Shown here one piece after another: positions 7,677-42,641 of a stretch of DNA of 64,000 nucleotides. Location of the stretch: positions 1 to 64,000 of the IMG/VR virus record IMGVR_UViG_3300008255_000118; one strand, 5' to 3'. The notes below the pieces were generated by a model. That model was not told where the DNA came from. It did not search any database and saw only the letters and a list, made by a program, of their open reading frames with translations. This stretch comes from a virus. Lineage: Duplodnaviria > Caudoviricetes. A program made the translations under genes and the position numbers. The first letter of the stretch is position 1, and the number at the start of each line of letters is the position of its first letter.

Positions 7677-7705
7677 GATATTTAATTTAATTTAATTGTT
7701 ACTAG

Positions 7706-7860
7706 TTTAAACCCAAGAGGTATAAAGACCCCCTCTGAAGACATCTTGGGTTTGTAAGTATTTGCATTCTCTCCAGAATCAAAGAACTTGGCATTTTAAG
7801 GAGGCATTGGTAACCTCTGAAGAAGTGTCTGCCGACACTATACTTTTCTTCTTACAAATG
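7706..7860 (-). ncRNA. candidate structured RNA / riboswitch-like leader
   Basis: Helices 7751-58/7851-58 (8 bp), 7824-29/7834-39 (GGCA GNRA loop on minus), 7801-05/7813-17 (G-U only on minus), 7761-70/7775-83 (one bulge), 7709-18/7744-53 (10 bp). Confidence 0.45.
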
Positions 7861-7878
7861 ATACACTCTCATCTCTCT

Positions 7879-8253: not shown

Positions 8254-9098
8254 TATCTTATTACTGAAATTCTCTGTAACTGTGTTTGTTTCTCTCCTCT
8301 ATACTCTGTATGCTTCACTGTGCCCTTAACTGTTGTGAATCTCTCTTCATCTAATACTGGAGGAGATCCACCTAGATATTTGTACAACTTGTTATCACGG
8401 CTTTGATAGGTGATGATATAGAATTCACCATAGTCACCATCAAAACTTCTACTGTCAATCTCTTGTAATTCAGTGCTGATTCTCTCTTTATCATTGTGTA
8501 AGTACCCGCCTTGTAATGAATCTATAAGAGCTTGTTTTCTCTCTCTCTCTATTAGAGAGTCTCTATACTTAGGGGAGACCCATTCTCGTTTGTAATGAAC
8601 TAACATTCCCAGCTCAATCATTCTTCTCCTAGCATATACTATTGGCCTTGCCCATTCAGGCCTAACTCTATTCTCCCCTTCAAATACTATTTCTTTCTTC
8701 AAGTATAGACACCAAAGAGCTTTTCTCTCTCCTTCACTAGCTTCTTTATCATCTGTCCCATCAACAAGTTTTCTAATATCACCAAGTTTTCTAATATCAC
8801 CAACTCCCCATCTATGAATATTAGATGGAAACTCCCAATCAGGCCTATCTGTTCCCTTCTCTCCTGTAGTATAAAAGGATACACTTCTACCATATAACTT
8901 TAAGTCTGGTGTTAAGTTAGTGACCCCAAACCTAGCAGCCTTAATCTTGGCTTGTTCTTCATCTTTTGATAAATTCTGTAAGTAAAGATAGTCAACTCTC
9001 CATTCGAAGTCAAATTTTTCAGCTCCGTAATAGTGTTTGTATTCTTCTGAGATATCCCAGAGGGTAAAGTACTGTGTGGCAAATCCGATTCTTTTCAT
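8253..9098 (-). CDS. hypothetical protein with C-terminal OB-fold-like region
   Basis: C-terminal F.GDYG...I..Y...D...Y.Y.G...VKGTVKHTEYRGEKQTQLQR; first gene behind the 9126 promoter. Confidence 0.55.
   Translation of the reverse strand: MKRIGFATQYFTLWDISEEYKHYYGAEKFDFEWRVDYLYLQNLSKDEEQAKIKAARFGVTNLTPDLKLYGRSVSFYTTGEKGTDRPDWEFPSNIHRWGVGDIRKLGDIRKLVDGTDDKEASEGERKALWCLYLKKEIVFEGENRVRPEWARPIVYARRRMIELGMLVHYKREWVSPKYRDSLIERERKQALIDSLQGGYLHNDKERISTELQEIDSRSFDGDYGEFYIITYQSRDNKLYKYLGGSPPVLDEERFTTVKGTVKHTEYRGEKQTQLQRISVIR
8765..8803. repeat. 18-bp in-frame tandem duplication
   Basis: caagttttctaatatcac x2, giving GDIRKL-GDIRKL. Confidence 0.9.
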
Positions 9099-9125
9099 GA
9101 TGATATATTAAAAAGTTTTACAGTA

Positions 9126-9156
9126 TAAAAGTATAAAATTTATACTTATCATCAAA
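9126..9156 (-). promoter_or_regulatory. Bacteroidota-type promoter with embedded palindrome (copy 1)
   Basis: Minus strand TTTG-N19-TACTTTTA; perfect aagtataa-aat-ttatactt at 9129-9147. Confidence 0.75.
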
Positions 9157-9185
9157 CTTTATTTTAATATTTTTTTAAAAATAAT

Positions 9186-9698
9186 TTAAAAGGGACAGTC
9201 ATCACTCTCTTTACCTACTCTCACTCCCATTTCTACTGTAAAAATATTCTTCCCACTGATATCTCTATCTCTCCACTTTAAGTACTTTTCTATATTATCC
9301 GTATTGGTTAGTGCCTGTATGTTATCATAGGTGTAGCCTCTATTCTCCACTATTCTATCAATATGCAAAGAAAACTTTGTTACGCCCTTTCTTTGCATAT
9401 ACTCAGTCTCTTTACAAAACTGTAAAAACTCCTCAAAAATTAGAGAAAATATCTTACTATACTCTTCAACTCTCAGTAGAGATTGAAAGAATGCTTCATA
9501 GGTATCATCATTATACAAATGTCTCTGCCTTGTAGTGTAGTTAATCAGTTTCTCTCGAAAGACTCTTCCAGTCTGTTTAATATCTCTAAGCCAAAATTTC
9601 TCAGCCCCTGTTTCTTCTAGTTTATCAATAGTATCAATCAATATAGTAGACTGTAGAACTATGTTTACAACTTGTTCTCTTATTTCAGTTTCTGACAT
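9186..9698 (-). CDS. hypothetical protein, possible C-terminal HTH
   Basis: 170 aa; C-terminal IVENRGYTYDNIQALT segment is weakly HTH-like. Confidence 0.5.
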   Translation of the reverse strand: MSETEIREQVVNIVLQSTILIDTIDKLEETGAEKFWLRDIKQTGRVFREKLINYTTRQRHLYNDDTYEAFFQSLLRVEEYSKIFSLIFEEFLQFCKETEYMQRKGVTKFSLHIDRIVENRGYTYDNIQALTNTDNIEKYLKWRDRDISGKNIFTVEMGVRVGKESDDCPF

Positions 9699-9721
9699 CT
9701 CTTACAATTAAAAAGTTATCT

Positions 9722-9955
9722 CTAGTACTCAGCTGAATCTAACTGTAATACATAGTCTTCAAATGTAGCTATATCAGCTGAGGCATATGGCCCATAAATA
9801 GTAGTTGTACCATCTGTAAGTACAATATCAATTTGTCCACTAATAAAAGCTCCTGTTACACCATCATTTACTTGAGTTACTGTATAAGATACTATGTGTT
9901 TTATATTGAATCTCTTAGATTCATCATTGCCTAATCTTATGAATGCTTTTGCCAT
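9722..9955 (-). CDS. hypothetical protein
   Basis: 77 aa ORF, beta-rich. Confidence 0.55.
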   Translation of the reverse strand: MAKAFIRLGNDESKRFNIKHIVSYTVTQVNDGVTGAFISGQIDIVLTDGTTTIYGPYASADIATFEDYVLQLDSAEY

Positions 9956-9980
9956 ATTATTGTTCTTTAACTGGGGTTAC

Positions 9981-10289
9981 TTACGGAATTACTTGAATGC
10001 CTATTGATACAATTGGTTTTCTTGTAGTTTGATAAAACACTACAATAGATTTACTTTGAGTTCTTAGCTCCTGTTGTAGAATAGTAAAGTCTTCTTTCTT
10101 AAGTCTAATATCTACAATTTTCCCTCTTTTGATATCTTCTGGGGGAATCTTTCGATATCTATCAGTGATATACCCCCAATTCTTACTTAGAATAAGATCT
10201 AGAGACTTATGTTCTGTTGGTTTGACTCTAAATACTGTTGAGTGACTCCCTTTAGTAAAGTAGAGTTCTAGTTTCTTGTCTTTTTTCAT
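9981..10289 (-). CDS. hypothetical basic protein
   Basis: 102 aa ORF. Confidence 0.55.
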   Translation of the reverse strand: MKKDKKLELYFTKGSHSTVFRVKPTEHKSLDLILSKNWGYITDRYRKIPPEDIKRGKIVDIRLKKEDFTILQQELRTQSKSIVVFYQTTRKPIVSIGIQVIP

Positions 10290-10294
10290 AATAC

Positions 10295-11425
10295 TTATTT
10301 TAGTCCAGTTGAAAGTTTAGCTTTGATAATAGGGTGGTATTGATACTCAAGTAATCTAAACCACTCAGGGTCTAGAGAAGAAAACTTCTCTACATCATCA
10401 ATATCCTGTCTCTCAGAGAGATGAATAAAGTCTCTATGAAACTCTAATCTAGGTAGTGGGCATGGTTTTCTACTAATTTGTTCTACTACTGCTGTGATAT
10501 GATTGTGATATATGTGTACATCCCCGAATGTATGTATGAACTTCCCTGGGACCATGTTGACTATTTTAGCAATAATCTCGATTAGTAAGGCATAGGACGC
10601 TATATTGAATGGCACACCAAGTATAGCATCTGCACTTCTTTGGTATAACTTACAATCAAGATAGTATTTAGGCGGGTTATAGGCTTTGAATATATCTTCG
10701 TAATTGTTGTTGTAACAGACTTCTCGAGGAACATATTCAAGTCTTTCCTCATCTGTTAATGGTCTAGCATTGAATTGAAACAAGGCATGACACCAGTATA
10801 ATGCCAAGTCTTGATCATGGACTGGGTCTATTGCTGTTACGATATGTCTTCTAGACTGTGGGCTATCTCTTAGTGAGTGAATTAGATTAGCTATTTGATC
10901 AATACTTTGATACTTAACATCTATCATATCCTCTCCTGATGAGTAGACTCCAGTTCGTACTGCTATCTCTTTCTGGGTTTCCCAGTCTCTCCAAACTTTC
11001 CCATACTGAAACCCACAGTCGCCTAATGTATAGTTAGGGATAACACTGTTCCCTTCTTCCGTTATAGGAGAGGTCTTACCACTCTTAATAATACTAATAA
11101 AATTTACAAAAGAAATAGGAGATGGCTTCTGAGTATACTCACTTAATCTCTTTAGATAGTAGTTATAGGCATCTTCATTCCAGATATTACAACCATGATC
11201 CACTAGATATTTGATATTAGTGCTCCCTCTTAAGAACCATACTAGTTCGGTAACTATACCCTTCCAGTACATCTTCTTAGTAGTAACTAGAGGGAAACCT
11301 TTTTGTAAATTAAATTTTATTTGAGGGCCAAAGAGAGATGTTGTATCTGGCATCCCTTCTCTAGCTGCTGGCTTATCAATGCCATGTTTACTTATTTTTT
11401 TTACTAGTTTTAGATACTGTTTCAT
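10295..11425 (-). CDS. thyA: thymidylate synthase
   Basis: FPLVTTKK, ELVWFLRG, SRRHIV, catalytic WCH..FQF, YQRSAD..LGVPFNIASY, HTFGDVHIY. Confidence 0.95.
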   Translation of the reverse strand: MKQYLKLVKKISKHGIDKPAAREGMPDTTSLFGPQIKFNLQKGFPLVTTKKMYWKGIVTELVWFLRGSTNIKYLVDHGCNIWNEDAYNYYLKRLSEYTQKPSPISFVNFISIIKSGKTSPITEEGNSVIPNYTLGDCGFQYGKVWRDWETQKEIAVRTGVYSSGEDMIDVKYQSIDQIANLIHSLRDSPQSRRHIVTAIDPVHDQDLALYWCHALFQFNARPLTDEERLEYVPREVCYNNNYEDIFKAYNPPKYYLDCKLYQRSADAILGVPFNIASYALLIEIIAKIVNMVPGKFIHTFGDVHIYHNHITAVVEQISRKPCPLPRLEFHRDFIHLSERQDIDDVEKFSSLDPEWFRLLEYQYHPIIKAKLSTGLK

Positions 11426-11658
11426 TTACTATTCAATTTTAGTTGTTCAATTTTATGTTCAAGATACCACTGTGCCTTCTTAAGATCTTCCAACTCTTTT
11501 GATGGGTCTTTCTTCCCCGCTCTAGCAATATACTTAACAGTATTCCCCAGAGAAAACCCTAATCCCCAGGCATCTATTACCTTAATTGCCTCAAAGGGAT
11601 TGTCTTCACCTCCGTAGTGTGCTGGGTGCCCTACCTCTTTACTACTACTTTCTGCCAA
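11422..11658 (-). CDS. DUF3310 (SaV-like) protein
   Basis: HPAHY...EAI.VI......F.LGN..KYI.RAGKK......DLKKA.WYL; TTG start. Confidence 0.85.
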   Translation of the reverse strand: MAESSSKEVGHPAHYGGEDNPFEAIKVIDAWGLGFSLGNTVKYIARAGKKDPSKELEDLKKAQWYLEHKIEQLKLNSK

Positions 11659-11700
11659 AATTATCTACTATTTTATTAAAAATTATCTACTATTTTATTA
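11657..11700. repeat. 22-bp tandem duplication
   Basis: aaaattatctactattttatta at 11657-11678 and 11679-11700, just upstream of the DUF3310 start. Confidence 0.95.
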
Positions 11701-11701
11701 A

Positions 11702-11883
11702 AAATTCTCTACTCTACTCTCAAGAATTGATGGGTATAGAATATCTATACTCACTCCCAATGTGGGATAGGTGCTCCTCTTAAGTAGAGGTAGAGAATTT
11801 AAGGTAAGAGCTCCAATATTTCCTGACAGAAACTTCTTCCCAATGTCAGTTAAGTGAGAGGTTTCCTTCTCATCTCTTACCCT
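11702..11883 (-). ncRNA. candidate structured ncRNA with two multibranch domains
   Basis: Helices 11702-12/11790-800 (11 bp) plus 11713-18/11783-88; 11734-39/11745-50; 11755-59/11763-67; 11803-10/11874-81; 11823-28/11844-49; 11855-59/11868-72 with GAAA loop on minus. Confidence 0.55.
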
Positions 11884-11893
11884 TTTATACTTA

Positions 11894-12598
11894 CTAGTCT
11901 GAATAGTCTTCCATGTACTTAGTAATTGAGTCTTCAATTAAGTCTAACATAGACATCCCTGTCAACTCTGCAAAATCTTTAATAACTGGCTTAAAGCTCT
12001 TTCTAACCAATAAATTCTCATACTTTTCATCAGTAACTGGTGGCTTCTCTATTCTGGTGGTAGTAAATACTGTCTTGTCTATGCTTAACCCTCTTACCAT
12101 AGCCTTGGTTGTAGGCGATAATTTAGTAATATTGTAACCATAGTAGATTGACTTGTCTACCTCTAGCCCAAACATTTCTGCTATCTCCTTAAACTTCCTG
12201 TTATGATAACCATCTTTAGAAACATCTTTAATATTCTCTTGAAAACACTTCAAGTGTGACATTTCATGTAATAGAGTATTTACTAGTTCTTCTTCTCCAC
12301 CTGTAGAAAGTGTTTCAGCTGAAATATTAATCTCATCATAACTTTTCCCTTCAGAGTTCCACTGATTAGGTATAAACCAACCCAGTGACTGTTTTCTTCT
12401 CCCCCTAGTTTGAATAGTAATAAGTATGTTTGTTGGAAGAGAGCTACCTGTGAACTGTTTATTAAAGAAATCAAATAATCTCTCCAGTTCTTTGATGGCC
12501 CTTCTATACCTATCCTCTACGGGACTAACTTTGTCAGATAATGTTACTGTCACTATCTTCTCACTCTCAATAATCTGTTCTCTACTATTGTCTAACAT
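11894..12598 (-). CDS. SprT-like zinc metalloprotease, possible C-terminal ribbon-helix-helix
   Basis: TLLHEMSH (HExxH) and GYHNRKFK third ligand; C-terminal LLVRKSFKPVIKDFAELTGMSMLDLIEDSI resembles RHH. Confidence 0.75.
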   Translation of the reverse strand: MLDNSREQIIESEKIVTVTLSDKVSPVEDRYRRAIKELERLFDFFNKQFTGSSLPTNILITIQTRGRRKQSLGWFIPNQWNSEGKSYDEINISAETLSTGGEEELVNTLLHEMSHLKCFQENIKDVSKDGYHNRKFKEIAEMFGLEVDKSIYYGYNITKLSPTTKAMVRGLSIDKTVFTTTRIEKPPVTDEKYENLLVRKSFKPVIKDFAELTGMSMLDLIEDSITKYMEDYSD

Positions 12599-12624
12599 AA
12601 TAACGATTTTTAATTAACACGGCT

Positions 12625-12655
12625 TAAAACTAAGTATAATTTTTATACTTACAAA
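12625..12655 (-). promoter_or_regulatory. promoter with embedded palindrome (copy 2)
   Basis: TTTG-N19-TAGTTTTA; perfect aagtataa-ttt-ttatactt at 12632-12650. Confidence 0.8.
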
Positions 12656-12676
12656 CTTTACTATTTATTTTTTTTT

Positions 12677-15190
12677 TTAACCACATTTAGAACTCCCACA
12701 GTCTAGACACTTACTACAGCCTTCTAGAAAAATAACATTCGTTCTATCCCCTGTACAATCTGGGTTTGTACAAAGAACTGTTGATTGACTACCATTAACA
12801 ATATATGTTTTTAGTATTCTACCGATTGCAGCTGTAAAGCTAAACATATCACTCTTTGATTTCTCTAACTGGTCTACTATTCTTACAAGAGGGACACCAT
12901 GACTGAGAGAAACTGATATCAATCTACAAATAGCAGTCTGTTCGTCTGTCATCTTATCTGTTAGAATTCTATGATTATGTTTTGCCCCATTTGTTTTCTT
13001 GAAATAATACTCACCTCTATCTCTTCTAGTAATAATGCCTTGTCCTGTTAAAGTAGTTCCTGTATACCCAAACACTTCATAGGGCTTATCTTCTATGGTG
13101 CCAACAAAGATGCTAAACTCAGTCCCTTTAACAGAGGTAACATAGGCCATACCATCTACCTCTTCTGGCCTCTTAAGCAGCTCTTTCTCCTTAAATACCT
13201 CTTTCTCCTGGCTATCACTAGCTACTAGTATTCCACTTCTAGACCCATCACGATAAACAGTAATACCCTTAAGACCTCTTTTCCAAGATTCGATATAGAT
13301 ATCCCCTACTAAACTAACTGGGACATCTTTTGGTAGATTAATGGTTGAACTTATTGAATGTGTTGTGTACTTCTGTACTAAAGATTGCAACTCTACTCTC
13401 TTCTTCCAATTAATTTCAGATGCAGTAGATCCGGCATAGGGACTCTCATTAGTGTCTGTCTTACCTGTTATCTGTTTCCAGTCCTCTAACTTAGGGTGAA
13501 CAACTTCAAACTCTTCAAAAGAATCACCTGTATTATCAGTAAAATCTATATTGGCATTCTTGTCTTCTCTATTTACTTTTCTTCTTCTCTTGTAGGATAG
13601 CAAATAAACTGGTTCAATCCCTGAAGAGGTTTGAGCCAACATACTTAAGCTCCCTGTGGGTGCTACTGTACTGATTGAAATATTTCTACGACCATATACC
13701 ATCATTCTTTTATAGATGTCAGGAAACTCTCTCTCCATCATCTTTATGAACTCTGATTGATTCTCATACAGTGGATCAAATCCCTTGAACTGCCCTCTTA
13801 CCACAGCCATATCAATACTACTGTCAAACTCTCCTCTTAACTTAGTTTTCATAATCTCATCAACTACTAAAAGAGCTTCATCCCCATCAAACTTCTTGTC
13901 TAAAGCTGCTAAGGTATCTGCCAGTGCAGTAAAACCTAAGCCTGTTCTTCTCCCTTCTCTACCACTTCTGTATAATAACTCCCAGATACTTAGTTCTGTT
14001 CTCTTTATCTCTTCAGGTTCCTTGTCACTACAAATCTTCCTCATTATAGATGCCACTGCTCTAAGCTCTAGGTCTACTAGATCATCCATTAGTCTTTGTG
14101 ATTCATAAACTACCTCATAGAACTTAGAGTAGTTAAAGCTAGCTTTATCAGTAAAAGGGTTCTCAACAAAACTATACAAGTTTATAGCTATTAGTCTACA
14201 ACTATCACCCCCTTGCATTGCTATCTCTGAACAAGGGTTAGTAGAATCATTCTTATAACCTGGGTATATCGAGGAGGTTGAATACTTATGTTGTCTATCC
14301 CAGAATATCAAACCTGGTTCAGCTGTATTATGTGCACACTCTATAATAGTACCCCACAACTCTTTGGCTCTAATTACTTTGGTGTATATTGGTTCTTTAC
14401 TGTCTATTGGGAAACGTAATGTAAAGTCTTCATCCTCTACAACAGCCTTCATAAACTCATCTGAAAGCCTCAATGAAATATTAGCTCCAGTCACCTTGGT
14501 TAAGTCTTGTTTTATAGTTACAAACTCTTCGATATCAGGGTGGGCTATATCCATTGTCAACATCAAAGCCCCTCTTCTACCATTCTGGGCAACTTCTCTA
14601 GTGGTATTGCTAAATCTGTGCATAAATGAAACAGCACCTGTAGTTGAGCCTGATGAATTCTTAACAAAGCTACCACTTGGTCTAAGATTTGACAAATCAA
14701 CTCCAACGCCACATCGTCTTTTAAACAATTGTGCCAATTGTTGATCTGTATGAAAAATACCCCCATAAGAATCATAGACTGGAGGAACTACTACACAATT
14801 TGAAAGAGATGCCATCATATCACTATTACCTAAAGAAGACATAACACTACCCTGTGGTATAGCATACTTAAAGTCTTTAAATAGTTGATAGATTTTCTCT
14901 CTTGTTAGTAGTCTTCTCTCTCTCCCATATTGTGATAACTTTTCCCCGTGTTTTATTTGAGTAATGCCATCATCTCTTGACCACATCAGTTCAACACTCC
15001 CAAATTCCTTGGACATTCTTCTGTGCATATCATCAGGGGTCTTTTCTGAAAACTGCCCTTCTTTTGTTTTCATTGCATACTTGTTAATCCAAGTAGTAGC
15101 TGCTAGTTCATCACCTCTAAAGTACTTTAGTGTCTCCTCTAACACTTCACTATATGTGAAAGTAGTTGGCACTTTTGATTTCTCTGTCAT
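12677..15190 (-). CDS. nrdJ: class II (adenosylcobalamin-dependent) ribonucleotide reductase
   Basis: SLSNC, STNPCSEI catalytic motif, TVAPTG, SGIEP, KGITVYRDGSR, C-terminal Zn ribbon C..C...GC..C..CG; no beta subunit nearby. Confidence 0.9.
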   Translation of the reverse strand: MTEKSKVPTTFTYSEVLEETLKYFRGDELAATTWINKYAMKTKEGQFSEKTPDDMHRRMSKEFGSVELMWSRDDGITQIKHGEKLSQYGRERRLLTREKIYQLFKDFKYAIPQGSVMSSLGNSDMMASLSNCVVVPPVYDSYGGIFHTDQQLAQLFKRRCGVGVDLSNLRPSGSFVKNSSGSTTGAVSFMHRFSNTTREVAQNGRRGALMLTMDIAHPDIEEFVTIKQDLTKVTGANISLRLSDEFMKAVVEDEDFTLRFPIDSKEPIYTKVIRAKELWGTIIECAHNTAEPGLIFWDRQHKYSTSSIYPGYKNDSTNPCSEIAMQGGDSCRLIAINLYSFVENPFTDKASFNYSKFYEVVYESQRLMDDLVDLELRAVASIMRKICSDKEPEEIKRTELSIWELLYRSGREGRRTGLGFTALADTLAALDKKFDGDEALLVVDEIMKTKLRGEFDSSIDMAVVRGQFKGFDPLYENQSEFIKMMEREFPDIYKRMMVYGRRNISISTVAPTGSLSMLAQTSSGIEPVYLLSYKRRRKVNREDKNANIDFTDNTGDSFEEFEVVHPKLEDWKQITGKTDTNESPYAGSTASEINWKKRVELQSLVQKYTTHSISSTINLPKDVPVSLVGDIYIESWKRGLKGITVYRDGSRSGILVASDSQEKEVFKEKELLKRPEEVDGMAYVTSVKGTEFSIFVGTIEDKPYEVFGYTGTTLTGQGIITRRDRGEYYFKKTNGAKHNHRILTDKMTDEQTAICRLISVSLSHGVPLVRIVDQLEKSKSDMFSFTAAIGRILKTYIVNGSQSTVLCTNPDCTGDRTNVIFLEGCSKCLDCGSSKCG

Positions 15191-22952: not shown

Positions 22953-22983
22953 TAAAACTAAGTATAATTTTTATACTTACAAA
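22953..22983 (-). promoter_or_regulatory. promoter with embedded palindrome (copy 3)
   Basis: 35 nt identical to copy 2 (taaaactaagtataatttttatacttacaaacttt). Confidence 0.8.
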
Positions 22984-23024: not shown

Positions 23025-23214
23025 TTAATCTACCAGTTCTATTGATGTAGAGGCTTTAATTCTTTTTCTTAAGCTAACTATCAGTTCTCTTTGAGAACTA
23101 TCAATCACTGAATCTAAATCTACTAGTAGCTGTTTTCTGACATTCATCTGGGCTCTGCCCATCTCTGGGATGGAGTTATACCCCGTACTTTTCTGCAAAC
23201 TCTTCTTTAGTCAT
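23025..23214 (-). pseudogene. ORF broken by an extra G in a G4 run
   Basis: GGGG at 23181-84; removing one G gives 62 aa MTKEEFAEKYGYNSIPEMGRAQMNVRKQLL...SIELVD*. Confidence 0.45.
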
Positions 23215-23226
23215 CTTATTCTTCTT

Positions 23227-23395
23227 TTATCTCTTCTTACTATAGTATTGATCTCTTAACTCTTCATCCATCTTGTCTAGCAGGTCTCTATGCTCTTTAG
23301 ATAAACTATCATATCTCTCTACTAGTGGATTAAAGTAGTATTAATTTCTTAAACTGGGAATTATAAGCTAAAATACAATTTTGAAAGCAATTCAC
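23227..23395 (-). pseudogene. ORF broken by a 1-nt insertion
   Basis: GTG start; removing one A near 23343 gives 55 aa ...NSQFKKLYYFNPLVERYDSLSKEHRDLL...KKR*. Confidence 0.35.
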
Positions 23396-23398
23396 AAC

Positions 23399-24235
23399 TT
23401 AAACAAGACAAACCAGTTTATTAGATAGGTTAGCATATCTCTGACCCTCAATCACTCTATAATATATGTTTGAAGAAATAATTTCAGTTCTAACCAATCT
23501 TTTCGTAACTTGTAAAAAACCTGATAACTCTAAGCTAGTTAATATATCTCTAGCTGAGGATACATTAGTTAAGCCTAATACTCTACATACTCCCTTCAAT
23601 GAAAGTGTCACATCCAGGTTCAGTTCTCTCTTATATTCTGACTTCCCTGACAACAAAGAATATATGTACCCATTCAAATCATCTCGATATTCATCATAAA
23701 GCTGCACAATGTCATTACTAGTAAACTGGTCTAGAATCTCTATACAGCTTGACTGAGTATGGTGGCTTAAAGATACGGGGTGTGTTTTATGACCTCGAAG
23801 TGATTGATATAAGTTTAGTCTCTGTTGTTTCAAACTGTCTCGAATATCTACATACTGAATCCAACTCTTAACATTTTCTACTATAAGTTCTCTAGTTTTG
23901 AAGATCTTAAAGAACCCTTTTCTTTTTCTCTTATAATTGTATTGTAGATCATAACCTAGTAAAGAGAAGAGATCATCATATGAAACTACTTGATAACCCT
24001 TCTGTGTTTTCTTAACTACACCTAGTCTAATACATTTTCTTAGTTTGTAGTAACAGGAGGACTCAGTATTGCTAATCCCTGATGTAAGCATTTTTGAAAT
24101 AATGGTAGTCTCTCTAAAGTACCCACTAGAATTTATTATCTTCAACTGGTAGTAGACTACTACTTCATTTAGACAATTCTTCTTTTTACAAAAGTTGTGT
24201 AACTTTTTAGGTATCTTCAGATAACTGTTTCTCAT
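23399..24235 (-). CDS. hypothetical protein, possible winged-HTH DNA-binding protein
   Basis: 278 aa basic; LSLKGVCRVLGLTNVSSARDILTSLELSGFLQV resembles wHTH. Confidence 0.45.
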   Translation of the reverse strand: MRNSYLKIPKKLHNFCKKKNCLNEVVVYYQLKIINSSGYFRETTIISKMLTSGISNTESSCYYKLRKCIRLGVVKKTQKGYQVVSYDDLFSLLGYDLQYNYKRKRKGFFKIFKTRELIVENVKSWIQYVDIRDSLKQQRLNLYQSLRGHKTHPVSLSHHTQSSCIEILDQFTSNDIVQLYDEYRDDLNGYIYSLLSGKSEYKRELNLDVTLSLKGVCRVLGLTNVSSARDILTSLELSGFLQVTKRLVRTEIISSNIYYRVIEGQRYANLSNKLVCLV

Positions 24236-28883: not shown

Positions 28884-29918
28884 CTACTCTAATAATAGCT
28901 TTAACGTTTCTCTACCCTTTTCTTTATCTATACTATTCAACTCTGAAAACTCATCCCACTCTGTAAAGAGATTATCTTTTGTAAATGGTGTGAAAGATTC
29001 TGCTAATTCTAGTTCGACCTTATCTACTGATATATAGTCACTCTTCATTACAAAGCCACTATTATCTAAAATTCTCATTACTTGAAGTTTCTTTAGAGAG
29101 TCTAGTTCTTCTTTTGTACCATTCAGTATTACTCTTACTTTGAGGTGCTTAGACAGTTCAATCTTAGATAGCTTCTCCAGATCATCAGCAATAGTATCTG
29201 AATAATTCAACTTCACAGTCTCATATACTTGAAACTCTTTATCTACAAACTCATATGAACCATCATTAAAAATCTTAGTAAATCCCTTATACTGGTCTTC
29301 TCCAAAGTTTCTTTGCATTATTGACCCTATATAAACAATATTGTCAATAATCTGTCTATCATGGTAATGACCCACATATACTTGCTTGAACTGACTAAAC
29401 TTTTCTTTCGATAAAGACTCCTGTATCTCAGTCCCATCATTATTTCTAACCCCATTAACTGCTATGTGTGTAATTAGAATACTATCACAACTAGACTGAA
29501 CAACTCTACCCAAATATTTAGAATAAGTCTCTTTTTCCTCAAAGAAAGGAATAAGCCATACATTTAAGTTATCAAATGTCAAAACTTCTGTCTCTCTGAC
29601 TAATCTAAAGTGTGGGTGATATCTAAAGACATCAAGATAACTCTTCTCACTGGAATAACTCATCTTATCATGATTCCCAGGGATAACTATTATCTGAATG
29701 TCATACTTTTCTGCCATCTCTAGTATCTGCCCCCAATAGTCAATTGTTATTAGAGTTTGAGACTTTCTAAAGTTAAAGATATCACCACTGATAACAAGAG
29801 TAGAGATAGAGTTAGCAACCATCTCCTTAAAAATTGACTCTAAAGATTCTGTTACTAACTCTCCACTATTATCATCAATATGAAGGTCTGTTACTAAGTA
29901 AAATAAAACTTTCTTCAT
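28884..29918 (-). CDS. sbcD: SbcD/Mre11/gp47-like nuclease
   Basis: TDLH, SGDIF, PGNHD, THIA, GHYH, YIGS metallophosphoesterase motifs. Confidence 0.9.
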   Translation of the reverse strand: MKKVLFYLVTDLHIDDNSGELVTESLESIFKEMVANSISTLVISGDIFNFRKSQTLITIDYWGQILEMAEKYDIQIIVIPGNHDKMSYSSEKSYLDVFRYHPHFRLVRETEVLTFDNLNVWLIPFFEEKETYSKYLGRVVQSSCDSILITHIAVNGVRNNDGTEIQESLSKEKFSQFKQVYVGHYHDRQIIDNIVYIGSIMQRNFGEDQYKGFTKIFNDGSYEFVDKEFQVYETVKLNYSDTIADDLEKLSKIELSKHLKVRVILNGTKEELDSLKKLQVMRILDNSGFVMKSDYISVDKVELELAESFTPFTKDNLFTEWDEFSELNSIDKEKGRETLKLLLE

Positions 29919-29929
29919 ATCAAAAAGAA

Positions 29930-31156
29930 CTACCCTACTTGTTTCTTTAAAAATTCTAAAGGGTTATCAGGTATAGACTCTTCTCTAGTCTGCTCTTTCA
30001 AGTCTCTATCATCTTCTTCCTTAAATGGAAGAGTACCCATCAATTTAACTTCTCTTTGTACTAAAGAACGAATCTCTTCAACTGTATCTTCTGGCAGTAC
30101 TCGAATAGGGAAGCCTTGTACTTTGATATGTTGAATCAACTCTGCTCTATTCATATCACTTACATACTTTTTCTTAGCTGTTATCTCTGTAGATTCAGCT
30201 TTTTTTTCAACACCTACCCTTATTGATTCAAGAGACTTCTCTTTAGCAGGAGAAGACTCTCCAACTATTTTAGTACTACTTTCTGTAGCTTCTTTAATTT
30301 GCTCTTCTTCAGGATAAAGATCGCTATACTGCTCTACTATTTCAGCCCAATGGTCTGTAGAGAAGATATTGTAGTCTTCTTCAGCTTCATCAAATCTCTT
30401 AAGACCCTCTAAAGCTAATAAGAAATCAGATCTTCTATAACAATTAGTATAGATATCCTCTAGTGACTTAGCTTTTTCTAAGATATCCAATTCAGCATCA
30501 GTAAGTTTAGTTGGTCCCATAATATCAGGCCCTGTCTTATAGTAGTCTTCAGCCTTTCCACTAACGGGCTTATTATCATAGGTCACATAAATACAAATGC
30601 CTGTATCAGGGTCTGTATAGGGATCTGTGGTAATCATAGATGAACCATCATCCATGTTAGAGGCTAGAGCATTCATGGCATTCTTTACTGAAGTCTTTAG
30701 TTCTAGAATGCCAAACTTCTTACTGGTACCCTTAATCAAGTTTGCATATACTACCCATGTTCTAGACATCCCGATACCTGACTTGAAGGCTGTAAGTCTT
30801 CCAACAAACTCTTCTCTCTGTTTCTTATCAGTAATACTTTTACTTAGTAGCCAAACTTGACTGATGTACTCATCAATAATACACTTCTTGTGTTCTGAGT
30901 GATATAAGCCACTCCATACTGGCTTATTTTTAACTACTTTCTTACCGTCTTCCTCTACTTGAATTGGTAAAAAGTGTACTCCCTTTGGGTAGATAAAACT
31001 AGCTGTACCAGGGTGTTTTGGGAAGATTCTAATTTTGTTCTTTCCTACCTCTAGACTAAGATAAGAGCCTTCACTATCAAAGACTGCATCAAATTCTTTT
31101 TGCTGATTATTCAAATCAGACATGGCTGTCGCCTTAAACTGTTCTCTTAAACTCAT
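29930..31156 (-). CDS. single-stranded DNA-binding protein (gp32-like)
   Basis: NKIRIFP, DP.TG..I.V, acidic C-terminal tail; position in recombination block. Confidence 0.6.
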   Translation of the reverse strand: MSLREQFKATAMSDLNNQQKEFDAVFDSEGSYLSLEVGKNKIRIFPKHPGTASFIYPKGVHFLPIQVEEDGKKVVKNKPVWSGLYHSEHKKCIIDEYISQVWLLSKSITDKKQREEFVGRLTAFKSGIGMSRTWVVYANLIKGTSKKFGILELKTSVKNAMNALASNMDDGSSMITTDPYTDPDTGICIYVTYDNKPVSGKAEDYYKTGPDIMGPTKLTDAELDILEKAKSLEDIYTNCYRRSDFLLALEGLKRFDEAEEDYNIFSTDHWAEIVEQYSDLYPEEEQIKEATESSTKIVGESSPAKEKSLESIRVGVEKKAESTEITAKKKYVSDMNRAELIQHIKVQGFPIRVLPEDTVEEIRSLVQREVKLMGTLPFKEEDDRDLKEQTREESIPDNPLEFLKKQVG

Positions 31157-31717: not shown

Positions 31718-31739
31718 TTATTACTTTGTAATTAATCCC

Positions 31740-31770
31740 TAAAACTAAGTATAATTTTTATACTATCCAA
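31740..31770 (-). promoter_or_regulatory. promoter with embedded palindrome (copy 4)
   Basis: taaaactaagtataatttttatacta; palindrome has one mismatch; -33 element is TTGG. Confidence 0.7.
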
Positions 31771-40344: not shown

Positions 40345-40375
40345 TAAAATTATAAAATTTATACTTATCATCAAA
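40345..40375 (-). promoter_or_regulatory. promoter with embedded palindrome (copy 5), upstream of queF
   Basis: TTTG-N19-TAATTTTA; shares tataaaatttatacttatcatcaaactt (28 nt) with copy 1. Confidence 0.75.
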
Positions 40376-42106: not shown

Positions 42107-42152
42107 TCTCTACTATTTTAAGTTTTGGTAAAAATATAAAAAATATACTTAA

Positions 42153-42641
42153 CTACAAAATTCTCATTACTCTTTTTAATGGTACAAGTAAAAACTTTTT
42201 CTTATCTCTTACTCTAACTGATAGAAGTGGGAGTTCATTCATCACCATAGAATTGTCAGCTATGTACCCAATAGAGTTAGAGCTATCTTCATTCTGTATT
42301 CTCACTTCAGAATCTCTATTGTAAAAGAATACTCTATCCCACTTCTCCAACTTGTCTTTCTGTGCTGAATCTCTATAACAAAATACTGGTTCTCCCCATT
42401 CAGGTATTATCCCTGAAAAGACTCTAAGGTATTCATCTTTACTACTAAAAATAGTTTCCAGTCTATTCTTACTACCAATATCTTCGATCTTCTTCTTTTT
42501 GCCTAACATTGCATTCTCCCAATAAGGAACATACTTTTTTTGAAAAATCTTTGTTCTGATTTCTGCACAGATATACTCCTTCTGTAGATTTTCAAAGAAC
42601 TCAAAGATAGATAAGTTCCTAGATGATTGGCTATTCTTCAT
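42153..42641 (-). CDS. hypothetical protein
   Basis: 162 aa ORF directly after primase. Confidence 0.6.
   Translation of the reverse strand: MKNSQSSRNLSIFEFFENLQKEYICAEIRTKIFQKKYVPYWENAMLGKKKKIEDIGSKNRLETIFSSKDEYLRVFSGIIPEWGEPVFCYRDSAQKDKLEKWDRVFFYNRDSEVRIQNEDSSNSIGYIADNSMVMNELPLLSVRVRDKKKFLLVPLKRVMRIL

Follow-up and report, generated by a model that had tools for sequence, protein, structure and literature searches.

The window analysed here is the first 64 kb of an 88,332-bp IMG/VR virus record and comes from an uncultured phage, very probably of Flavobacterium. All of the ORFs chosen for the gene map of the window are carried on the minus strand, and GC skew is negative throughout the 88-kb genome. 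On these two grounds the stretch studied here, a structured element of 182 nt at 11702-11883, was assigned to the transcribed strand. The features of the locus are listed below in the direction of transcription.

12625-12655, minus strand: nearest upstream promoter of a repeated family (TTTG, the palindrome AAGTATAAAAATTATACTT, then TAGTTTTA)
11894-12598, minus strand: SprT-like metalloprotease gene, 234 aa (Pfam PF10263, E 7.5e-11); its C-terminus aligns with those of the relatives in phages L087 and L090
11698-11937, minus strand: ORF79, an open reading frame with a TTG start that overlaps the element; judged not to be a gene
11883-11894, minus strand: the 12-mer GTAAGTATAAAA, left half of the promoter/operator palindromic core
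11801-11883, minus strand: domain A of the element, with the same MFE and centroid structure; predicted 10-bp closing helix including one G-U pair, two hairpins and a junction
11702-11800, minus strand: domain B of the element, with the same MFE and centroid structure; predicted closing helix of 11 + 6-7 bp with a one-base bulge
11700-11704, minus strand: U5 run at the 3' end of the domain B closing helix, a terminator-like tail seen in the sequence
11642-11713, minus strand: AU-rich 22-nt tandem array, 3.2 copies by TRF
11422-11658, minus strand: DUF3310 gene, 78 aa, TTG start (Pfam PF11753, E 4.4e-14); the start matches the ATG of the L090 gene
10295-11425, minus strand: thyA gene, 376 aa (Pfam PF00303, E 2.2e-81), with a 4-nt overlap with the end of DUF3310

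Read in the same direction, a gene for a UvrD-type helicase is followed by a class II-like ribonucleotide reductase (12677-15190), an AT-rich promoter gap and the SprT-like gene, and then by a 235-nt gap, DUF3310, thyA, three small ORFs and a further promoter at about 9126-9156. The 235-nt gap (11659-11893), which holds the element, is the largest intergenic gap of the window; the rest of the phage genome is compact, with most gaps shorter than 100 nt. Members of the promoter family consist of TTTG, 19 nt and TAnnTTT(A/G), with the -33/-7 spacing of the Bacteroidota type, and about seven near-identical copies are present in the genome. The copy at 12625-12655 probably drives SprT, the element, DUF3310 and thyA. 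No promoter of this family was found inside the spacer when it was scanned, and since the nearest one lies upstream of SprT, DUF3310 and thyA must be read through the element. Flavobacterium is very probably the host of the phage, as suggested by the Bacteroidota form of the promoters and by a solitary 47-nt CRISPR repeat (23352-23398) whose letters agree at 45/47 positions with repeats in many Flavobacterium arrays.

A first-pass annotation of this region had described a 22-nt tandem repeat following the element and a TTG start for DUF3310, and both descriptions were borne out. The array, of 2.6-3.2 copies, was recovered by TRF and is exact over 11657-11700. Its first copy is the 3' arm of domain B, the second and third copies are identical, and a last partial copy lies over the DUF3310 start codon, a TTG at 11658 that aligns with the ATG of the L090 homologue. 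Because the array begins with the 3' arm of domain B, the 5' arm of that domain is nearly complementary to each of the repeats, and it is also 80% complementary to DUF3310 codons 3-8. Alternative pairings of these kinds are not populated in the predicted ensemble, and the length and composition of their helices suggest that they are much weaker than the native ones. The repeats and the DUF3310 start region are instead predicted to be largely unpaired, including when 461 nt were folded together. The 22-nt motif was not found elsewhere in the genome. Its use as a second class of promoter was considered and rejected, as the motif is unique to the locus and its spacing does not fit the -33/-7 promoter.

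At the 5' edge of the element, the half promoter repeat GTAAGTATAAAA bridges SprT and domain A, reaching from the final base of the stop codon (11894) to the base with which the domain begins (11883). The minus strand has four copies, of which three belong to promoters and the fourth is the one at this edge; by a hand estimate, about 0.06 copies per genome strand are expected by chance. The half repeat has the look of a scar left by recombination, or of a promoter that has decayed, at the boundary of a module.

The element itself is non-coding and is predicted to fold into two adjoining three-way-junction (Y-shaped) domains, with zero unpaired bases between them; the SprT stop codon stands 10 nt ahead of domain A. 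The closing arms of domain A, GGTAAGAG (11803-11810) and CTCTTACC (11874-11881), form the 8-bp stem described in the first-pass annotation, and this rises to 10 bp on the minus strand by means of G-U pairing, also as described. The stem encloses a bulged 7-bp hairpin with a GAAA/AAA loop, a 6+4-bp hairpin with the CUGACA/UGUCAG helix and a single-stranded junction of 12 nt, GAAAUAUUGGAG. The closing helix of domain B contains a perfect 11-bp inverted repeat (11702-11712 with 11790-11800), and within the domain lie an inner 5-bp helix and two hairpins, UCCCA/UGGGA and GUAUAGA/UCUAUAC. The GAAA-looped hairpin and the CTGACA/TGTCAG helix of domain A, the 11+6-bp stem of domain B with its single bulge and the TCCCA/TGGGA hairpin were all found where the first-pass annotation had placed them, as was the hairpin given there as GTATAG/CTATAC, which was seen here as GTATAGA/TCTATAC. 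Similar motifs, AUUGGGA and AUUGGAG, recur among the single-stranded junctions and loops of the element.

Pairs of the MFE structure have a mean probability of 0.89, with one structure dominating the ensemble, and both domains were retained when 461 nt were folded together. A competing helix between 11777-82 and 11805-10 had also been put forward. The complementary letters for these 6 bp do exist, but the helix is used in neither the MFE nor the centroid structure. The suggestion that the region lacks the purine skew of neighbouring coding DNA stood only in a modest form, with a purine fraction of 0.54 here versus 0.59 for SprT and 0.63 for DUF3310, and also 0.54 for thyA. Domains A and B were also compared as possible tandem duplicates of one another, and the local alignment was unconvincing (p ~0.03, a 13-nt match).

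The folding of this stretch was statistically exceptional. Against dinucleotide shuffles, the 235-nt gap had folding z-scores of -4.25 (minus strand) and -4.67 (plus strand), and 0/200 shuffles matched the native folding stability. Among the 15 intergenic gaps tested in the window, the gap with the element was the best folder. When 3,527 sliding 182-nt windows of the 88-kb genome were ranked by GC-corrected stability, the element took first place for the plus strand and second place for the minus strand. The highly structured stretch is thereby confirmed as real and not due to chance. The two strands are nearly equal in folding energy (-63.7 vs -61.9 kcal/mol), and because both fold almost equally well a reading at the RNA level is not forced. 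Mirrored onto the plus strand, the minus-strand structure, with its 6 G-U pairs, becomes 8 kcal/mol less stable, whereas the plus-strand structure placed on the minus strand costs 1.3 kcal/mol, so that the minus strand tolerates both optimal structures. The loss of 8 kcal/mol suggests that the modelled energetics slightly favour the transcribed strand.

As ORF79 overlaps the element, its coding potential was assessed separately. This frame contains no ATG, and its sole start, a TTG, lies in a 44-nt overlap with SprT. The codon score, 0.17, is borderline, near the upper limit for spurious ORFs (maximum 0.185) and at the bottom for real genes, most small ones of which score 0.22-0.57. Conservation of the frame had been named in the first-pass annotation as one observation that would speak against an RNA element; among 1.84 billion protein representatives there were 0 homologues at E<=0.001, not even the frame itself. 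No Pfam match was obtained, and nothing was called between SprT and DUF3310 in the JGI and ENA gene tables for the contig. We therefore judged the element to be non-coding and ORF79 not to be a gene.

We compared the element with known classes of RNA and with other types of element. A search of the whole window against Rfam 15 at the gathering threshold returned only CRISPR-DR50 at 23353-23398, and with the limit relaxed to E<=10 the one family returned for region 11400-12100 was SSRC38, whose 19.7 bits fall well short of its gathering score of 80. No family, be it of riboswitches, ribozymes, 6S/6S-Flavo, Flavo-1, tRNA or sRNAs, was thus matched in the cmscan-type comparison that the first-pass annotation had recommended, in keeping with its view that the element is undescribed. 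ARAGORN found 0 tRNA genes in the window and in L087, L088 and L090, and there was no Rfam tRNA match; a degenerate tRNA cluster, considered on account of T-arm-like strings in L090, was rejected on these two negative results. Dispersal as a repeat or MITE-like sequence was rejected as well, as the element is present in a single copy in the 88-kb genome and has no match in the phage collection.

Canonical intrinsic terminators consist of a G+C-rich hairpin with a loop of 3-8 nt followed by a U-tract, and none was called on the minus strand at the element in a scan of 9000-13000. Domain B does precede a U5 run, with a 61-nt branched domain in the position of the loop and an A-U-rich base to its helix. 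Sites of the RNase III type present about two turns of mostly uninterrupted double-stranded RNA; set against this length, the predicted helix of domain B measures 11+7 bp with one bulge. Riboswitch classes have an aptamer that is conserved in related and unrelated genomes upstream of functionally linked genes, and by single-sequence models the element is absent from L090, 100 DUF3310/thyA phage loci and 151 Flavobacterium genomes. The earlier idea of an antitoxin mimic is without its hallmarks. In type III systems of the ToxI kind, tandem repeats of about 34-45 nt precede a terminator and the gene of an endoribonuclease toxin; the repeat unit here is 22 nt, and the next genes are DUF3310 and thyA. 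A phage pseudo-antitoxin would resemble a host antitoxin repeat, and nothing similar was found among 301 Flavobacterium genomes with a query holding a single repeat unit. Three 22-bp direct repeats and an AT-rich tract, both features of iteron origins, are present; GC-skew analysis revealed no skew switch, and no initiator gene was identified next to the element.

Identical phage genomes had been assembled independently in JGI, ENA and Logan data (contigs of 88.3-88.5 kb), and every recovered copy of the spacer was 100% identical, three in full (L088, L089 and L091) and two in part (L092 and L093). Beyond this lineage, blastn at a setting for distant matches, with the element and the L090 spacer as queries, found no relative among 50,697 phage records. 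Collection of homologues by nhmmer, as proposed in the first-pass annotation, was carried out on 80 thyA and 80 DUF3310 loci and yielded no diverged homologue. Single-sequence covariance models of domain A or B (R1 and R2), run with filters off on the window, L087 and L090, had no match in either relative and found nothing similar in the window beyond the element itself; they also came up empty in 100 phage loci and in 151 Flavobacterium genomes. A BLAST search of 301 Flavobacterium genomes gave four weak matches, which involved coding DNA or only the AT-rich tail of the query. Exact 17- and 18-mers shared with IMG/VR were at chance level; there were two 18-mer matches, neither of which extended beyond 22 nt of the element.

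The flanking genes allowed the locus to be compared with those of related phages. Among 5.8 billion proteins, the SprT-like protein has just two moderately close relatives, 73% and 65% identical, with more distant homologues located in bacterial mobile elements; DUF3310 is too conserved to mark kinship. L090, the nearest relative, with a SprT that is 73% identical, keeps the order SprT, spacer, DUF3310, thyA. Its spacer of 596 nt is non-coding, with no forward-strand ORF of at least 30 aa, and is only moderately structured; neither blastn nor shared 8-mers gave an alignment of it with the element. No tandem repeats were found in it. It ends in a stable hairpin of 10-13 bp and a U-tract, about 25 nt before the DUF3310 start. 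In L087, whose SprT is 65% identical, an 82-aa ORF begins 4 nt past SprT, and the spacer, DUF3310 and thyA are missing from this position; the next gene is a homologue of the 102-aa ORF that in the window comes after thyA. From this gene order, spacer, DUF3310 and thyA behave as a single cassette, which a phage may carry or lack at this position. Descent of the spacer from the genes that follow SprT in L087, as a decayed copy, was rejected when blastx found nothing.

Other loci gave a similar picture. Most of 80 other DUF3310 loci in IMG/VR abut the upstream gene, with about 15 having gaps of more than 100 nt, and the best thyA relatives, at most 58% identical, are tightly packed and have no spacer. 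On this sequence evidence, the element has no known kin outside a single clonal lineage of phage, and the available evidence on conservation speaks against a widespread regulatory RNA.

Tentatively, we favour the view that the element is a lineage-specific, cis-acting RNA structure within a polycistronic phage transcript, where it could serve in attenuation, processing or mRNA stability. We infer that the element is transcribed, that the transcript may be terminated or processed there and that expression may be affected as a result. Transcription would start at the promoter at 12625-12655 and proceed through the SprT-like gene into the element, and the two Y-shaped domains would fold independently right after the SprT stop codon. 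The 18-bp closing helix of domain B with its U5 run could then act as a partial (leaky) terminator or attenuator, or the helix could be a processing site of the RNase III type, while domain A would be an extra barrier to 3' exonucleases. Together, the two domains would uncouple SprT mRNA, in both amount and stability, from the DUF3310-thyA cistrons downstream. These cistrons would be translated from a long, unstructured, AU-rich leader made up of the 22-nt repeats. An unstructured AU-rich leader is of the kind expected for Bacteroidota, in which Shine-Dalgarno pairing is weak.

Several observations led us to favour a cis-acting structure. The domains are stable and well defined, while the repeats and the start region are largely unpaired; the 18-bp helix of domain B is followed by UUUUU; the spacer of L090, different as it is, also ends in a hairpin and a U-tract before DUF3310; and the element sits at the boundary of the DUF3310-thyA cassette with half a promoter repeat at its 5' edge. 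Against it, the fold is not that of a canonical terminator, given its branched 61-nt "loop" and A-U-rich base. Elsewhere, at 2149-2174, the phage makes do with a plain hairpin followed by a U-run, and as a simple hairpin would suffice for the proposed job, the elaborate architecture is left unexplained. The structure is also not conserved in L090, which leaves room for a neutral or a DNA-level origin.

The neutral alternative, which we consider rather unlikely, is that the spacer is a non-functional remnant, recombination junk at a cassette junction whose palindromes, like the 22-nt repeats, arose through template-switch inverted duplications and slippage and are not under selection. Homologues were lacking in the collections searched, the L090 spacer of 596 nt is unrelated and L087 has none, all as a remnant would have it. 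Folding that is symmetric between the strands fits as well, and the near-perfect stems of purine and pyrimidine tracts next to an exact tandem duplication suggest a recent mechanical origin, to which the scar-like half promoter repeat may be added. However, a fold that ranks 1st or 2nd in stability among 3,527 windows is seldom reached by decayed sequence, the genome is otherwise compact with most gaps below 100 nt, and the element is unchanged in all independent assemblies. The symmetry of folding is shared by another unlikely reading, in which the stretch works as DNA, as a replication origin or other protein-binding site with iterons, an AT-rich tract and inverted repeats able to form cruciforms. 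Three direct repeats at a spacing of 22 bp, or two helical turns, lie beside an AT-rich stretch and large inverted repeats, and the surrounding genes (UvrD helicase, RNR, SprT, thyA) form a DNA-metabolism module. A non-coding spacer that is kept in place while its sequence is not would fit origins that co-evolve with their initiator. Yet no initiator gene was identified beside the element, the cumulative GC skew changes monotonically and does not turn at 11.7 kb, the L090 spacer is without tandem repeats and the overlap of the last repeat copy with the DUF3310 start codon suggests simple slippage.

The remaining alternatives assign the sequence a product or a sensing role. Many 3'-UTR-derived sRNAs lie directly after a stop codon and end in a helix and a U-tail, and the element has the same position and the same kind of end. 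It might therefore belong to a trans-acting ncRNA about 185 nt long, made from the 3' UTR or by processing of the operon transcript, that ends at the U-tract of domain B and acts as a regulator, sponge or decoy. Its compact domains, with the single-stranded GAAAUAUUGGAG junction and the AUUGGGA/AUUGGAG motifs, could bind a partner, and the solitary CRISPR repeat would be another likely RNA decoy in the same phage. We regard such an RNA as distinctly unlikely, given that the element lacks a promoter to itself, that L090 does not conserve it and that it resembles nothing in 301 (BLAST) or 151 (models) Flavobacterium genomes or in 100 phage loci. It is quite doubtful that the element represents a new class of phage-specific functional RNA of about 185 nt, cut from the SprT-DUF3310-thyA transcript and acting as a sensor that tunes the thymidylate-synthesis genes or as a decoy or sponge for a Flavobacterium factor. 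Such an RNA would end via the domain B helix and the U-tail, and the L090 spacer would be its fast-evolving counterpart.

Highly improbable, in our assessment, is a riboswitch or another ligand- or protein-responsive cis switch for DUF3310-thyA, even though the element lies directly upstream of nucleotide-metabolism genes and three-way junctions are typical of aptamers. The expression platform of a switch would be either the 11777-82/11805-10 helix or the pairing of the domain B 5' arm with the start-codon repeat. Alternative pairings do exist as sequence, both as the 6-bp helix and between the domain B 5' arm and DUF3310 codons 3-8 or the repeats, but by helix length and composition they are much weaker than the native helices, and one structure dominates the ensemble with a mean pair probability of 0.89. 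Moreover, no Rfam match was obtained even at E<=10, and the element is missing upstream of DUF3310 in 80 other loci, in the thyA relatives and in the nearest relative. That ORF79 encodes a real small protein, with the structure incidental, is extremely improbable. An open frame of 79 codons exists, and its score of 0.17 is at the low end of the range of real genes; against this stand the lack of any ATG and a TTG start lying 44 nt inside SprT, 0 homologues, no Pfam match, no call in the JGI and ENA contigs and the absence of a forward-strand ORF of 30 aa or more from the L090 spacer.

The first-pass annotation had proposed a candidate new ncRNA or a switch for nucleotide metabolism. Of this proposal, a non-coding, undescribed and structured element on the transcribed strand of the operon stands. 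A conserved nucleotide-metabolism switch is disfavoured, because the L090 spacer is unrelated, DUF3310/thyA loci are mostly tight and no match was found in 100 of them.

Stable intercistronic structures are known from other phages. In phage T7, RNase III cuts the early mRNA at a series of sites (R0.3-R1.3 and others), and after cleavage a protective 3' hairpin is left on the upstream message. The T7 sites and the element are alike as stable intercistronic structures of tens of base pairs in a long transcript read in one direction. The T7 sites, however, each consist of one hairpin of about 60 nt that has an internal loop, occur many times per genome and share a consensus, whereas the element is a single-copy stretch of 182 nt with two three-way junctions and nothing similar elsewhere in the genome. 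Compared with intrinsic terminators and attenuators, the element likewise places a helix directly before a U-run downstream of a stop codon, and in L090 a hairpin like that of a canonical terminator stands in the matching position. Unlike such terminators, the element has a branched "loop" of 61 nt and an A-U-rich base, and no promoter for the next genes lies downstream.

Its size, architecture and position upstream of nucleotide- or folate-linked genes recall three-way-junction aptamers such as the purine, TPP and THF-II/folE classes. It differs from riboswitch aptamers in having no Rfam match, in being restricted to one clonal lineage and in showing no evident bistable expression platform, and riboswitch identity is unlikely. 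The likeness to iteron origins lies in the three direct repeats, each about 22 bp and spaced by helical turns, the AT-rich tract, the inverted repeats and the setting in a replication and nucleotide module; the differences are the lack of a skew signal and of an adjacent initiator, and the placing of one repeat over a start codon.

In T4-type phages, promoter/stem-loop (PeSL, or promoter-terminator) cassettes at module junctions are reported to mediate shuffling (PMC2839356, PMC4122927). As in those phages, the phage of the window has repeated units of promoter plus palindrome that flank variable cassettes, and its element sits at the boundary of DUF3310-thyA presence and absence with half a promoter palindrome at the 5' edge. 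Unlike a PeSL, the element is not a copy of the promoter repeat. Only the 12-nt half-site is shared, and the structured 182 nt are unique.

What can be claimed at present is limited to a structure that is real and non-coding, and the label of a riboswitch or of a new RNA family is not yet warranted. For now, confinement to one clonal lineage removes any comparative handle and leaves little generality. Should a discrete RNA be produced, it would be one more phage ncRNA. To our knowledge, gene control at the RNA level in Bacteroidota phages is almost unstudied, and we know of no strong Shine-Dalgarno use and no Hfq in their hosts. If the transcript is processed, attenuated or stabilised by the element, Bacteroidota phages would have in it an unusually elaborate example, and if it acts as proposed, it would constitute a new and unusually elaborate intercistronic RNA structure of a phage operon.

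Gene content was compared between positions 4001-5410 of L087, a second relative of the phage, and positions 9981-12598 of the window. L087 carries an 82-aa ORF between its SprT gene and its homologue of the window's 102-aa ORF, in place of the spacer and DUF3310-thyA. Judged from gene order, the spacer and DUF3310-thyA are a cassette, present or absent as one unit. The spacer of the nearest relative, L090, was also inspected.

L090:674-1269, non-coding spacer of 596 nt between SprT and DUF3310

No Rfam family and no tRNA was found in this spacer. Besides T-arm-like strings (GGTTCGAAAC and GAGTTCAAGTCTC), it contains a long, roughly 67-nt hairpin and, just upstream of DUF3310, a terminator-like one.

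Strong folding was also observed elsewhere in the genome.

About 29760-29975, minus strand, extended hairpin of about 100 nt with a side hairpin, very stable by folding energy

This region, which extends from the end of ORF 29930-31156 into the beginning of ORF 28884-29918, folds at -60.5 kcal/mol (z -4.39, GC 0.30) with abundant G-U pairs. As it ranked first genome-wide on the minus strand and was absent from the plus-strand top list, the structure is strand-specific. Folding of the gap at 7677-7878 was unexceptional (minus strand, z -1.09; plus strand, z -1.59).

Near-identical copies of a predicted promoter recur as follows.

9126-9156, promoter copy
12625-12655, promoter copy
22953-22983, promoter copy
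About 31734-31765, promoter copy
40345-40375, promoter copy
42129-42159, promoter copy
77653-77683 (genome numbering), promoter copy

Each consists of AAAGTTTG followed by the palindrome (T)AAGTATAAAAATTATACTT and finally AGTTTTA; these predicted promoters have Bacteroidota-type -33/-7 geometry, and a likely operator lies between the two promoter boxes. A plus-strand unit resembling the family was located near genome position 84044.

ThyA (10295-11425) is 376 aa long, and its residues 2-372 cover the 266-position Pfam profile end to end, so insertions make up about 100 aa of the protein. ThyA proteins of related phages are comparably long (350-428 aa).

Independent JGI, ENA and Logan assemblies yielded contigs of 88,332-88,491 bp, and the ends of the ENA contig (L088) are nearly equal to those of the whole record (G000). 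Therefore, despite a listed completeness of 64%, the record probably represents the entire phage genome as a linear molecule whose termini are fixed.

A solitary CRISPR repeat was detected within the 200-nt gap at 23199-23398.

23352-23398, minus strand, solitary CRISPR repeat

The repeat matched Rfam CRISPR-DR50 over its full length (66 bits), and no CRISPR array surrounds it. It lies on the transcribed strand, immediately after gene 23399-24235, and could be a repeat-mimic RNA anti-CRISPR. Many Flavobacterium arrays, with a repeat period of 76 nt, share 45 of its 47 positions, and this solitary repeat is a strong clue to the host of the phage.
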